Of a stretch of 64,000 nt of DNA, positions 13,960-61,938 are shown piece by piece. A program made the position numbers and the translations under genes. How positions within the stretch are numbered: the first letter of the stretch is position 1; each line of letters opens with the position of its first letter. The notes under the pieces were generated by a model. The model saw nothing but the letters and a program-made list of their open reading frames with translations. It was not told the DNA's origin and ran no database searches. Source of the DNA: a virus (lineage: Duplodnaviria > Caudoviricetes); IMG/VR virus record IMGVR_UViG_3300050034_000334; one strand, written 5' to 3'.

Positions 13960-13988
13960 TAACCCATTGAAGACTGGAACGAGTAGAG
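13959..13988 (+). promoter_or_regulatory. Bipartite promoter-like motif GTAACCC-N17-GTAGAG; ATG 6 nt downstream
   Basis: Motif match. Confidence 0.6.
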
Positions 13989-38545: not shown

Positions 38546-38567
38546 ATCTCATCAATACTCAAAACTT

Positions 38568-39890: not shown

Positions 39891-39920
39891 CTCTACTGGA
39901 AAACCCAGCATATCGGTTAA
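39891..39920 (-). promoter_or_regulatory. Bipartite promoter-like motif TTAACCG-N17-GTAGAG
   Basis: Motif match. Confidence 0.65.
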
Positions 39921-40571: not shown

Positions 40572-40588
40572 GCGAATCAATTCAAACT

Positions 40589-40665
40589 TGGTCGGGCCAC
40601 TAGGGTTCGAACCTAGGACCTTGGGATTATGAGTCCCTTGCTCTAACCAACTGAGCTATGGCCCG
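40589..40665 (-). tRNA. tRNA-Ile2/Met (CAT)
   Basis: Cloverleaf, loop CTCATAA, CCA. Confidence 0.93.
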
Positions 40666-40693
40666 AACTCGAACTCGGCTCGTGCAAAAACTT

Positions 40694-40852: not shown

Positions 40853-40948
40853 TTACGCACTACCTCCAGAATCCAGACCGCCGATGGCATGCTGATTTCG
40901 CTGCCACTGCTTATGCTGTCTCATCGAATTGGTCTGTATCTGTTTCAC
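40853..40948 (-). CDS. 31 aa leader peptide of tRNA array A (MKQIQTNSMRQHKQWQRNQHAIGGLDSGGSA)
   Basis: AAGGGAG SD, GTG start; 17 of codons 2-20 cognate to downstream tRNAs. Confidence 0.75.
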   Translation of the reverse strand: MKQIQTNSMRQHKQWQRNQHAIGGLDSGGSA

Positions 40949-41010
40949 AGTACTCCCTTGACAAATTTCATAATACTACGGTTTCCTCTGATCGGGGAAA
41001 CTATTTTTGC

Positions 41011-41134
41011 CAGTGATTACGGAATCCTTTGTAACAAAACACTCAACCATGAAGGATTCGAACCTTCGCTATGAATGCACCCAATCATGACACTGTTCAG
41101 CACCAGGGGTCTACAAAGGATTCCGTAATCACTG
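41011..41134 (-). ncRNA. Small RNA closed by a perfect 23 bp inverted repeat, contains a T-arm
   Basis: IR 41011-41033/41112-41134; GAAGG-TTCGAAT-CCTTC inside; starts just after promoter motif. Confidence 0.6.
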
Positions 41135-41143
41135 TACATTACA

Positions 41144-41173
41144 CTCTACCGAACAACTTCTCAAAACGGTTAA
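41144..41173 (-). promoter_or_regulatory. Bipartite promoter-like motif TTAACCG-N17-GTAGAG (array A operon)
   Basis: Motif match. Confidence 0.7.
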
Positions 41174-41384: not shown

Positions 41385-41414
41385 CTCTACGGTGGTCTGT
41401 GGAGGAACGGTTAG
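41385..41414 (-). promoter_or_regulatory. Bipartite promoter-like motif CTAACCG-N17-GTAGAG
   Basis: Motif match. Confidence 0.65.
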
Positions 41415-41426
41415 GCGGTCACTGGC

Positions 41427-42500
41427 TCATCGGTCAGTTGGGCATCGGCCATCGTTCAGACGAAGAGTGAACTGAGCGATATGAACTGGCTCATTCTCTT
41501 TGATGGCCTTCTGCCAGTAGAACTGATACTGACTGGCGTAACCTGCCAGCTGGGCATCCTCCAGTGTGAACTTCACAAAGGGGATGAGATTTTTGCCTCC
41601 CTCGATGCCGAACAAACGGGGACCAAGAGCCTTCCTGATTCTGGCATAGGTGTAGCTGATGTAGATGCCAGGACTGGTGACGTTGCACCAGTTCTCAATG
41701 TCGAGGATGGTGTTCTTCCCGACTGCAGCTGAGTTGAACTGCCAGGCCAGGACGTTCCATGCCAACTGAGGAGAGACTACAGCGTTCTCGCTGGGCTTGA
41801 TCACCTTGCTAACTTCTTCGAACAGTTCCTCAGCCGCCACAAGGTTCGCTTCTGCTCCCTCCTTCTCCCGGGAGCGCATCTTCTTGTAGTCCTTGCCCAG
41901 AACCAGACCCATCGGCTTGTGCTGATCTCCCAATCCCAGGCTCTTGAAATGTTCGTGTTGCTCATACCCTGTCAGATATAAGTCCGGAGCACAGAATTCT
42001 ACGAAGCTCAGATCGTGTGCTGCATAGGTTGGACGACCGTCAGAGCGGTATATCACGACACCGTTGAACATCTTACAGCCTTCGTACTCTCCGGTGCCGG
42101 GAGTCAGTGTGTATCCTGTGGGCGGCTTCATGTCCCTATCAAATAAGATGAATGGCTGATATCCGGAGATGTGACACCAGTTGTTGAATGCCGTGTACGC
42201 TCCCTCTTTCTCGCCAATGGTGACTCCCAGCATTGCGACTGGCTTGGCTTTGGTGATATTTGCCAGCGCGGCGGCGATTGCCAGGTTCTTGATGTGCCCG
42301 ACATGAAGGTCTTTGTTGAGGTTAGGTGAGAATCCATCCAGAGTTATCTCGGATGGTTTGGCTTTCTCAGGCCATTCCCAGACGGTTGGCGTTACATGGT
42401 AGTTGTGGTAAATACCCACAGATTCATAACGAAATCCCTTGAGATCGAGTGGAGTGAGTGAAGTGACACCAACTCCCACTTGTTCAGGTATAGGATGCAT
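41427..42500 (-). CDS. Minimal arginyl-tRNA synthetase-like class I aaRS
   Basis: FSPNLNKDLHVGH (HIGH), YRSDG.PTYAAHDL, GYEQHEHF, KMRSR (KMSKS), YISYTYARI. Confidence 0.8.
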   Translation of the reverse strand: MHPIPEQVGVGVTSLTPLDLKGFRYESVGIYHNYHVTPTVWEWPEKAKPSEITLDGFSPNLNKDLHVGHIKNLAIAAALANITKAKPVAMLGVTIGEKEGAYTAFNNWCHISGYQPFILFDRDMKPPTGYTLTPGTGEYEGCKMFNGVVIYRSDGRPTYAAHDLSFVEFCAPDLYLTGYEQHEHFKSLGLGDQHKPMGLVLGKDYKKMRSREKEGAEANLVAAEELFEEVSKVIKPSENAVVSPQLAWNVLAWQFNSAAVGKNTILDIENWCNVTSPGIYISYTYARIRKALGPRLFGIEGGKNLIPFVKFTLEDAQLAGYASQYQFYWQKAIKENEPVHIAQFTLRLNDGRCPTDR

Positions 42501-42553
42501 GAGATCTTCCTCTCCAACCACATTCTACCAGAAGATGCCGGAATAAGGCTAGT

Positions 42554-43572: not shown

Positions 43573-43872
43573 TCAGATTAAGGTTTCTGGTCTGAGGAAG
43601 CTCAGTGCCAAGGTCCTTAGAACCAAACTACGACTTGCTCCTGGGTCTACCGCAAACATGCGAACGTCATGCAGTCTCGTAGCGAGATTCTGGAGTTTCT
43701 TGAGATCTTCTTGTATCTGCAGGTATGTATTGTAATTCACCATGACCGCCAGCTTCTCGCCCTTTGTACTTATGACGAGAACCTCTTCGGCCTCAATGGA
43801 CAAGGCGATTCGTACTGCAAAGCCGGTAACTGAGGCGGCCAAGGTCAAGGTCGACAACGACAACGCACTCAT
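43573..43872 (-). CDS. Possible Phd/YefM-like antitoxin
   Basis: EVLVISTKGEKLAVMVNYNTYLQIQEDL. Confidence 0.45.
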   Translation of the reverse strand: MSALSLSTLTLAASVTGFAVRIALSIEAEEVLVISTKGEKLAVMVNYNTYLQIQEDLKKLQNLATRLHDVRMFAVDPGASRSLVLRTLALSFLRPETLI

Positions 43873-48785: not shown

Positions 48786-48884
48786 CGAGTCTACAACAGA
48801 AAGCATTCTCAAAGAGTACCGTGCGAGCTTAGGCTCAAAACTCATGAGGCGGAGGGTATGAGGGTGCTTTCTGTTGTAGATTCG
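48786..48884 (+). ncRNA. Structured 5' leader/small RNA closed by a 15 bp perfect (21 bp with GU) stem
   Basis: CTACAACAGAAAGCA/TGCTTTCTGTTGTAG with three inner hairpins. Confidence 0.5.
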
Positions 48885-55160: not shown

Positions 55161-55173
55161 ACTTACTAAACTC

Positions 55174-55329
55174 TTGTACGAACGAATGACGAGATGGGAA
55201 ATGCCTTTCGGCTACCGCTGCCTTTGCCAGCTTGGCTACTCCCCGTCATGGTCGGGGAGACAGGACTCGAACCTGTGAAGACTTTCGTCGGCGGTTCCAA
55301 GATAACCCACTACTCTACGGCTCGTACAA
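55174..55329 (-). ncRNA. Circularly permuted class II tRNA-like RNA with internal ACCA
   Basis: 3' half (55295-55249), TGA linker, 5' half (55245-55214); 8 bp terminal stem. Confidence 0.85.
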
Positions 55330-55333
55330 AACT

Positions 55334-55750: not shown

Positions 55751-55769
55751 GGTGTTCCTTTCAAATCTT

Positions 55770-56011: not shown

Positions 56012-56038
56012 GACGAAATTCCTCACTCTTACATGATA

Positions 56039-56068
56039 CTCTACTGAGCGGAAAAGTAAAGCGGTTAG
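56039..56068 (-). promoter_or_regulatory. Bipartite promoter-like motif CTAACCG-N17-GTAGAG (array B operon)
   Basis: Motif match. Confidence 0.7.
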
Positions 56069-60001: not shown

Positions 60002-60448
60002 TTACATGAGTTCTCTACTGAGTCGAAACTCGGATCGGTTAGTCGAAACACCAAGGTCTGGATCTGGATAGGCGAACTTGGTTCCGAATTCCTTCATCAG
60101 CTCGACCTGCTCGTTCACCAGATGCTGAGACCAGTTCCGTGAATCACCCGGATGCTGGGCAACTGCGACGAAGAGCGTGTTCGGGTCTCCACCGCTCATC
60201 ATGGGCTTGATACCAGTCACCTGACCCAAGCCACCAACCACATCGTCTTCTCCGTGGTCGATGTAGAGACTTGTGGCAACATAGATGTAGTCGCCAATCT
60301 TGGGAACCCAGGGTTTGCCGGACTTGATCAGCTTACGGAGGACCGAGAGCTTCTTTTTGTCGAGTTGATTCTCGTCCGCGTGAGCCTGAGCCTTGGTGGG
60401 GAAAGTTTTCCCGGTGCGTTCACTCTGGAACCGTTTGACTTCAATCAT
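60002..60448 (-). CDS. Hypothetical protein
   Basis: GGAGG RBS. Confidence 0.6.
   Translation of the reverse strand: MIEVKRFQSERTGKTFPTKAQAHADENQLDKKKLSVLRKLIKSGKPWVPKIGDYIYVATSLYIDHGEDDVVGGLGQVTGIKPMMSGGDPNTLFVAVAQHPGDSRNWSQHLVNEQVELMKEFGTKFAYPDPDLGVSTNRSEFRLSRELM
60013..60042 (-). promoter_or_regulatory. Bipartite promoter-like motif CTAACCG-N17-GTAGAG
   Basis: Motif match upstream of 59969. Confidence 0.65.
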
Positions 60449-61908: not shown

Positions 61909-61938
61909 CTCTACGGAACTCATGCGAGAAACGGTTAG
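61909..61938 (-). promoter_or_regulatory. Bipartite promoter-like motif CTAACCG-N17-GTAGAG
   Basis: Motif match. Confidence 0.7.

Follow-up and report, generated by a model that had tools for sequence, protein, structure and literature searches.

A perfect 23-bp inverted repeat, the longest in the 187-kb IMG/VR record of a jumbo phage from peat soil, stands at the predicted 5′ end of the transcript of a tRNA array. The DNA analysed here, a stretch of 64,000 nucleotides that we refer to as the window, comes from the reverse strand of this record, the completeness of which is estimated at ~60%. The window contains 18 tRNA genes, which form two arrays and all lie on the minus strand. Array A consists of tRNA-Arg(ACG) at 40770-40694 and ten further tRNA genes, and in the minus-strand sense the hairpin formed by the repeat is found just upstream of it. 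As the leading, though tentative, explanation, we propose that the hairpin is a lineage-specific, double-stranded module at the 5′ end of the RNA that may be cut by host RNase III, a step that would release a Y-shaped RNA of ~100 nt and open the transcript. The perfect helix lies just behind the promoter and persists in three haplotypes of the phage, and it is absent elsewhere in the collections searched. Should the helix, here termed P1, act as an RNase III entry site or as a cap-like shield of the 5′ end, it would reveal a way in which jumbo phages can mature or stabilise a tRNA operon gated by a leader, with 5′ processing acting as a third layer on the promoter and the leader-peptide attenuator of array A.

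Structure of the hairpin

On the minus strand, the 5′ strand of P1 occupies positions 41112-41134 and the 3′ strand positions 41011-41033. The two 23-nt arms, of which the one at 41011-41033 is CAGTGATTACGGAATCCTTTGTA, are 100% complementary and are separated by a spacer of 78 nt, which confirms the perfect 23-bp stem and 78-nt loop that the initial annotation had described at 41011-41134. All 23 pairs are Watson-Crick pairs with no G·U among them, and the helix can be extended to 25 bp by a G-C and a G·U pair below a bulged A. When perfect inverted repeats of 14 bp or longer whose loop does not exceed 200 nt are counted throughout the 187-kb record, there are just two, this one and another of 16 bp. 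In composition-preserving block shuffles of the record (n=20), a perfect repeat never exceeded 14 bp, and by our own arithmetic about 5e-7 such 23-bp repeats would be expected by chance. Each strand of the element folds much more stably than shuffled sequences (minus strand, z -6.3; plus strand, z -7.5); the structure of the 243 nt upstream is not unusual (z 0.1).

Folds could be compared between the window and L049, a 10.6-kb contig that is 98-99% identical to the window and was recovered in a single metagenome scan seeded with the ArgRS-like protein encoded next to the element. In both variants the minimum-free-energy (MFE) fold is Y-shaped. Branch A of the loop (41079-41111, minus strand) is predicted to form an ACCC/GGGU helix and the hairpin UGGUGCU-GAAC-AGUGYCA (AGUGUCA in the window) in both MFE folds, and branch B (41039-41078, minus strand) a 7-bp helix, GCAUUCA/UGAGUGU, followed by a 4×4 internal loop and a T-arm. 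A hand-drawn alternative that resembles a cloverleaf is 14 kcal/mol worse. P1 stays an independent domain when the full 367-nt leader is folded.

Downstream of the element come, in order, a small hairpin (41002-40980) that is terminator-like on the plus strand, an 8-codon mini-ORF, a 31-codon leader ORF, the terminator of this leader ORF, and tRNA-Arg. The mini-ORF (40945-40971, minus strand) encodes MKFVKGVL and its terminal GTGA overlaps the GTG start of the codon-matched 31-codon leader ORF, an overlap that suggests translational coupling ahead of the attenuator. Two simple identities for the element itself were rejected. It is not an intrinsic terminator, since no U-tract follows P1 (GCAAAAAUAG) and a minus-strand scan for terminators finds none there. 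Nor is it a coding mini-gene: an ATG at 41139 opens a frame of 40 codons, in which both substitutions found in L049 are non-synonymous and the L049 insertion shifts the frame.

Promoter class and predicted RNA start

The phage uses a putative promoter motif, TAACCG-N17-GTAGAG, of which the record holds 18 copies compared with a mean of ~1.4 in shuffles. Seventeen of the copies lie on the gene-rich strand, and the spacing is identical in 16 of the 18. An ATG located exactly 6 nt past GTAGAG opens an ORF at 9/18 promoters, a hand count that comprises seven promoters at which this is the first ATG and two with a second ATG at that offset. At the seven ATG-offset promoters that were measured, the ORFs are 48-446 codons long. 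The fixed 6-nt offset points to leaderless mRNAs, and the start site was therefore placed at that offset. A hairpin is present at the RNA start of only 3 of the ~8 promoters that are not leaderless. Within the window, copies of the motif are found on the minus strand at 41143-41172, 41385-41413, 56038-56067, 60013-60040, 39891-39918 and 61909-61936, and on the plus strand at 13961-13988.

The copy at 41143-41172 precedes the hairpin. Its -35-like half, TAACCG, lies at 41167-41172 on the minus strand and is what the initial annotation had called the 41173 motif, and its -10-like GTAGAG together with the initiation region (GTAGAGTGTAATGTA) lies at 41135-41149 on the same strand, with a predicted start at G41137. 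Transcription of array A would thus begin at ~41137, 3 nt before the hairpin (C41134), and the first hairpin arm spans +4 to +26 of the promoter. The initial annotation had described a repeat that begins ~3 nt past the start site, in a promoter-proximal 5′ leader of array A on the tRNA strand; this description agrees with the promoter class, which puts the predicted start at 41137 and not elsewhere. When the RNA is folded from 41137, its first two nucleotides are paired and nucleotides 3-8 have a mean pairing probability of 0.83. The 15-mer GTAGAGTNTNATGTA occurs exactly twice in the window, once directly before the leader of each tRNA array.

A consensus scan found no standard sigma-70 promoter at the element, where the phage-specific motif replaces it. 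Searching with the promoter pattern returned only a variant of array B, and the motif is absent from Tunturiibacter phage Tunturi 5 (309 kb), the sole cultured relative of the peat phage (PMC11924767). The promoter consensus, which allows transcript starts to be predicted across an uncultured genome, is a more solid by-product of the analysis.

The promoter and the type of leader recur at array B, where no such hairpin is present, and the hairpin module is therefore dispensable for a leader-gated tRNA array. Around the predicted start, ATG-TAA, a start followed by a stop, is found at array B (56030-56036) and at 60013-60020, both on the minus strand; array A has ATG-TAC. Two further promoters outside the window are followed by unusual sequence. 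At the promoter at G000:151026 (L085:426-600, corresponding to G000:C1:151025-151200), a rod-like hairpin of ~90 nt extends from nt 3 (z -4.6); its 3′ strand overlaps a competing hairpin, CCAACG-AAAG-CGTTGG, a 23-codon mini-ORF comes next, and Rfam gives no match to the rod-like hairpin. At the promoter at L084:668-740 (G000:C1:36467-36540), GGGGAATCGAACCCC at +3 is the antisense image of a tRNA T-arm and part of an acceptor. ARAGORN finds no tRNA at L084:668-740, which is probably a further tRNA scrap beside a promoter.

Possible processing by RNase III

Bacterial RNase III cleaves double-stranded RNA from a length of ~20 bp upward and is not very selective for sequence. P1, with 23 perfect pairs, is an uninterrupted duplex of about two turns or more, as expected of a near-ideal RNase III substrate, and release by this enzyme is physically plausible for a helix of this length. 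In the mechanism that we propose, transcription from TAACCG-N17-GTAGAG would begin at ~41137 and the RNA would start almost flush with P1, which would close the Y-shaped 78-nt domain, one branch of which ends in a tRNA-derived T-arm. Host RNase III would then cut P1, whose duplex runs without a break for more than two helical turns, and the cut would detach an RNA of ~100 nt made up of upper P1 and the Y domain. The leader-peptide attenuator and the tRNA precursor downstream would gain a monophosphorylated 5′ end. Before cutting, P1 could shield the triphosphate end from 5′-end-dependent decay, and hairpins at RNA 5′ ends are known to hinder attack by RNase E, RppH and RNase J. We infer the exact start site, a cleavage of the helix by RNase III and any gain that the phage would draw from it, with P1 as the functional part of the element. 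A search for a phage RNase III gene in the 187-kb record (~60% complete) found none, and the host enzyme is assumed to act.

In favour of such a module, P1 is perfect and unique in the genome, and all three local changes among the strain variants fall inside the loop. Weak support comes from two other hairpins of the same genome, the one that extends from nt 3 at the 151026 promoter and the one at 48786-48884. The latter, with 26-nt arms that are 88% paired and a 47-nt loop, is the second-longest hairpin in the genome. Two co-directional plus-strand genes, separated by 140 nt, flank this hairpin, and 10 nt lie between its end and the ribosome-binding site that follows. We regard it as a candidate site of processing or stabilisation between cistrons; phage RNase III sites typically lie between co-directional genes. 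Against the module, array B does without the hairpin, few of the promoters that are not leaderless have one at the RNA start, and a perfect helix with no G·U pairs would also be expected of a recent inverted duplication at the DNA level.

Known RNase III processing stems include the early-mRNA sites of phage T7 and the long stems that enclose 16S and 23S rRNA in operon transcripts. Like these, the phage element has a long duplex formed by the flanks of an RNA domain in a polycistronic precursor, located at a module boundary, and its 23 pairs suffice for double-strand cleavage. In contrast to the T7 and rRNA stems, it is positioned at the very 5′ end rather than between cistrons and encloses just 78 nt, and its cleavage is predicted. 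Stabilising hairpins at RNA 5′ ends, such as those of the E. coli ompA 5′ UTR and the Bacillus 5′ stabilisers, are short. The element shares with them a helix within ~3 nt of the predicted 5′ end, in a geometry that would block 5′-end-dependent decay. However, a 23-bp helix that closes a branched 78-nt domain exceeds what stabilisation needs and should attract RNase III.

A tRNA-type T-arm in the loop

Branch B ends in a canonical T-arm, GAAGG-UUCGAAU-CCUUC (41067-41051), on the minus strand, which is the sense strand; on the plus strand the loop reads AUUCGAA and is not a T-loop. Because every other copy of the 11-mer GGTTCGAATCC in the window belongs to one of four real tRNA genes, the T-arm appears to be derived from a tRNA and not to have arisen by chance. 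The initial annotation had noted a T-arm without a full cloverleaf, and this is borne out: ARAGORN reports no tRNA, and the Rfam tRNA model (RF00005) gives 15.7 bits compared with a gathering threshold of 29. The parts that align to RF00005 are confined to the T-arm and a weak 7-bp 'acceptor', with the D and anticodon arms replaced by insertions of 26 and 28 nt. In the element, the T-arm is followed by AUGGUUGAGUG with no CCA, and a tRNA was rejected as the identity of the element. An encoded CCA terminates 18/18 tRNA genes of the window. At most of these genes the CCA is followed by a conserved trailer, AAGTTT(T), as at 40687-40693, 38561-38567 and 55763-55769, which may be a common 3′ processing signal. 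No parent tRNA emerged from comparison with the genome's 31 tRNAs, to which the best local alignment is no better than that of shuffled flanks (P 0.26). An 8-mer, GAATCCTT (AAGGATTC on the other arm), is common to the arms of P1 and the T-arm.

The T-arm suggests another explanation, in which the element is a trans-acting tRNA mimic or Y-like small RNA whose topology is unpermuted like that of Yrn1 from Deinococcus radiodurans, where a long terminal stem replaces the acceptor stem, hairpins lie inside and the T-arm comes last. Once released from the tRNA precursor, such an RNA would either associate with a tRNA-binding protein, Ro60-like or other, or act as a decoy for an enzyme or nuclease that recognises T-arms. 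Yrn1 has an unpermuted arm order and is co-transcribed with tRNA, and YrlA-type Y RNAs carry a Ro-binding motif near the 5′ end and have a Ro60 gene nearby (PMC4201824). The element resembles Yrn1 and YrlA in that its ends pair into a long stem around a tRNA-type T-arm and in its co-transcription with tRNAs, and the order of its arms (stem, hairpins, T-arm, stem) matches that of the unpermuted Yrn1 (Chen et al. 2014, PMC4201824). The T-loop is canonical on the sense strand, and clear YrlA-type mimics sit within the phage's own tRNA arrays, for example at 55161-55333, where the order is the permuted T / closed-acceptor / D.

Several features nevertheless make a Yrn1-like RNA unlikely. The element lacks a D-arm and a closed acceptor hairpin, and no D-loop-like GG partner is present at the D-arm position. 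From the T-arm to P1 there are only 17 nt, which leaves no room for an acceptor hairpin and a D-arm, and the mimic at 55161-55333 is quite different. YrlA (RF02553) gives no match at the gathering threshold or at E <=10, nor does Rfam overall assign the element to any family. The Ro-binding motif, GNCGAAN0-1G or of the GGUCCGA type, is absent from the 5′ arm, and the 187-kb record (~60% complete) gives no match to a TROVE (Ro60) gene. Furthermore, the T-stem is damaged in two of the three haplotypes, and no other part of the region changes as fast as the loop. The suggestion of a third tRNA mimic in the initial annotation is correspondingly weak: the element does not have the permuted order of the phage's mimics, belongs to no Rfam family and shows no parent tRNA beyond the T-arm, and its loop, with a T-stem insertion in 2/3 haplotypes, is the most variable part. 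On present evidence, the element is not to be counted among the phage's Y-RNA-like mimics.

The two explanations could also be combined in a purpose-built precursor, in which RNase III would free a ~100-nt Yrn1-like mimic from the 5′ end of the leader-gated tRNA operon, and the mimic would work in trans: a host enzyme that binds tRNAs, or a defence nuclease that targets them, would meet it as a T-arm decoy or scaffold. Production of the mimic would then be coupled to the promoter that supplies the phage tRNAs, but we consider such a precursor highly improbable. Plant mitochondrial t-elements offer a further comparison. They are acceptor and T-arm structures that serve as cleavage signals for RNase P and RNase Z. 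Like them, the element presents a partial tRNA shape, a T-arm on a helix, within a longer transcript, where it possibly marks a processing site. Unlike in the t-elements, a 4×4 internal loop splits the helix from the T-stem, and there is neither a 12-bp coaxial stack of acceptor and T stems nor a CCA/discriminator context.

Variation and distribution of the element

The element was found in only two other strain variants, L049 and the P0121 haplotype, both ~99% identical to the window. The initial annotation had made its reading depend on conservation of the repeat, and the repeat is kept in these close variants: both arms of L049 are identical to those of the window, and P0121, a haplotype known only from a spurious antisense ORF, shows no amino-acid change along the arms. 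However, zero changes over 46 arm positions is the chance level at ~1% divergence, where ~0.5 would be expected, and the persistence of the arms says little at this distance. L049 and the window differ at 8 of 772 aligned bases, and three of these differences fall within the 78-nt loop (binomial P about 0.04). In L049, a G to T change at 41111 removes a possible 24th pair (G·U), and a T to C change at 41090 converts a G·U to a G-C pair in the branch-A hairpin (AGUGYCA). A C inserted at 41067 in L049 and P0121, two of the three haplotypes, reduces the T-stem to 4 bp. P0121 has the T-to-C change together with the insertion and keeps the G of the window. Judging from these variants, the T-arm is not maintained within the population, and the loop changes no more slowly than the sequence around it. 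The T-arm is most readily taken for an inheritance from a tRNA-like ancestor and not for an active site.

Searches for relatives covered several collections. Megablast and blastn comparisons with phage records returned tRNA-Arg matches only. In IMG/VR, neither the two arms as a pair, nor one arm alone, nor the T-arm together with its flank had a match, and the same holds for the tRNA-Arg and leader patterns. An 18-mer from the arm is present in 596 Gb of GTDB prokaryote genomes as 14 single copies, which compares with ~17 expected by our own arithmetic and is at chance level. A covariance model of the element (R1) identified no relative in Tunturi 5 or in 33 IMG/VR huge-phage records, where the best score was 18.8 bits (E 0.11). 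Synteny was followed through ArgRS-like relatives at 43 viral loci, the closest of which have no downstream tRNA arrays or similar hairpins. A search for antisense targets found no more complementarity elsewhere in the genome than expected by chance. As far as searched, the element appears to be confined within these collections to its own strain variants.

This distribution bears on the explanation that the repeat acts in DNA as a pair of inverted protein-binding sites. These could be transposon-like terminal repeats that bound a miniature mobile element, or two operators that are spaced by 101 bp and fold the DNA just downstream of the promoter into a loop. Identical arms do resemble terminal inverted repeats or paired binding sites, promoter positions +4 to +26 make up the first arm, and the arms begin with CAGTG, with TA following one end. 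However, the repeat is present as a single copy in 187 kb, its arms are absent from IMG/VR, and the arm 18-mer is found in prokaryote genomes only as single copies at chance level. There is no target-site duplication at the ends, neither arm is itself palindromic, and no transposase or invertase gene was found nearby. We regard an element that acts at the DNA level as very unlikely. A MITE in particular was rejected: inverted repeats are present, but there is no target-site duplication, the genome has one copy and IMG/VR has none.

The same data also fit a young neutral relic, in which a recent inverted duplication, or a template-switch 'palindrome correction', trapped between its arms a fragment of a tRNA or tRNA mimic, represented by the T-arm, and the element is transcribed only through its position behind the promoter. 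We regard this explanation as somewhat doubtful, and nearly as likely as the RNase III module. Perfect arms without G·U pairs are typical of DNA-level events, and the 8-mer that the arms have in common with the T-arm hints at a local duplication. A relic would fit with a loop that holds three of the eight differences from L049 (P about 0.04), including the insertion that damages the T-stem in two of three haplotypes, and with the lack of a homologue in Tunturi 5, in the 33 other huge-phage records and in the scanned collections. Moreover, array B works without a hairpin, other tRNA scraps lie near promoters of this genome, and both indels and homing-endonuclease genes have a hot spot in this region. 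On the other hand, a parent tRNA is not identifiable. The exact placement at +4, with a helix that can be extended to the very 5′ end, would be a coincidence, and 124 extra nucleotides have been kept in three haplotypes between the promoter and the leader-peptide switch.

The ArgRS-like gene and mosaicism of the tRNA region

Compared with P0001, the ArgRS-like ORF at 41427-42521 (minus strand) is missing its last 46 conserved codons. An intron or insertion in this gene was considered and rejected, as the missing exon was sought in the window and the genome and not found, and the cause is a plain 901-bp deletion. The deletion lies at 41457/41458, 323 nt upstream of the element, and corresponds to L049:6044-6944. 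Along with the last 46 codons of the 394-aa ArgRS-like protein, it takes three small ORFs that encode a 57-aa protein with a Cys-X2-Cys pair, a 64-aa protein and a 143-aa membrane protein. The 'minimised' ArgRS-like gene is a truncated allele of this strain, and the deletion is unrelated to the element, which did not break the gene by inserting into it. Along with the promoter consensus, this truncation is one of the two more solid by-products of the analysis.

Other rearrangements are found nearby. A segment of ~174 bp at 43626-43799 has the opposite orientation to its flanks in L048 and L049, with ~1.5 kb of extra DNA adjoining it in L049. Clear flanking inverted repeats were not found at this segment, which may be an inversion or a recombination hot spot. 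After tRNA-Arg(ACG), L049 has within L049:7716-8423 a tRNA-Met(CAT) that differs from that of the window, together with an ORF of 182 aa that resembles a GIY-YIG endonuclease by eye; the window has its own tRNA-Met within 40578-40688. Genes for HNH and PD-(D/E)XK endonucleases are dispersed through array A, and the tRNA arrays are probably mosaics shaped by homing endonucleases.
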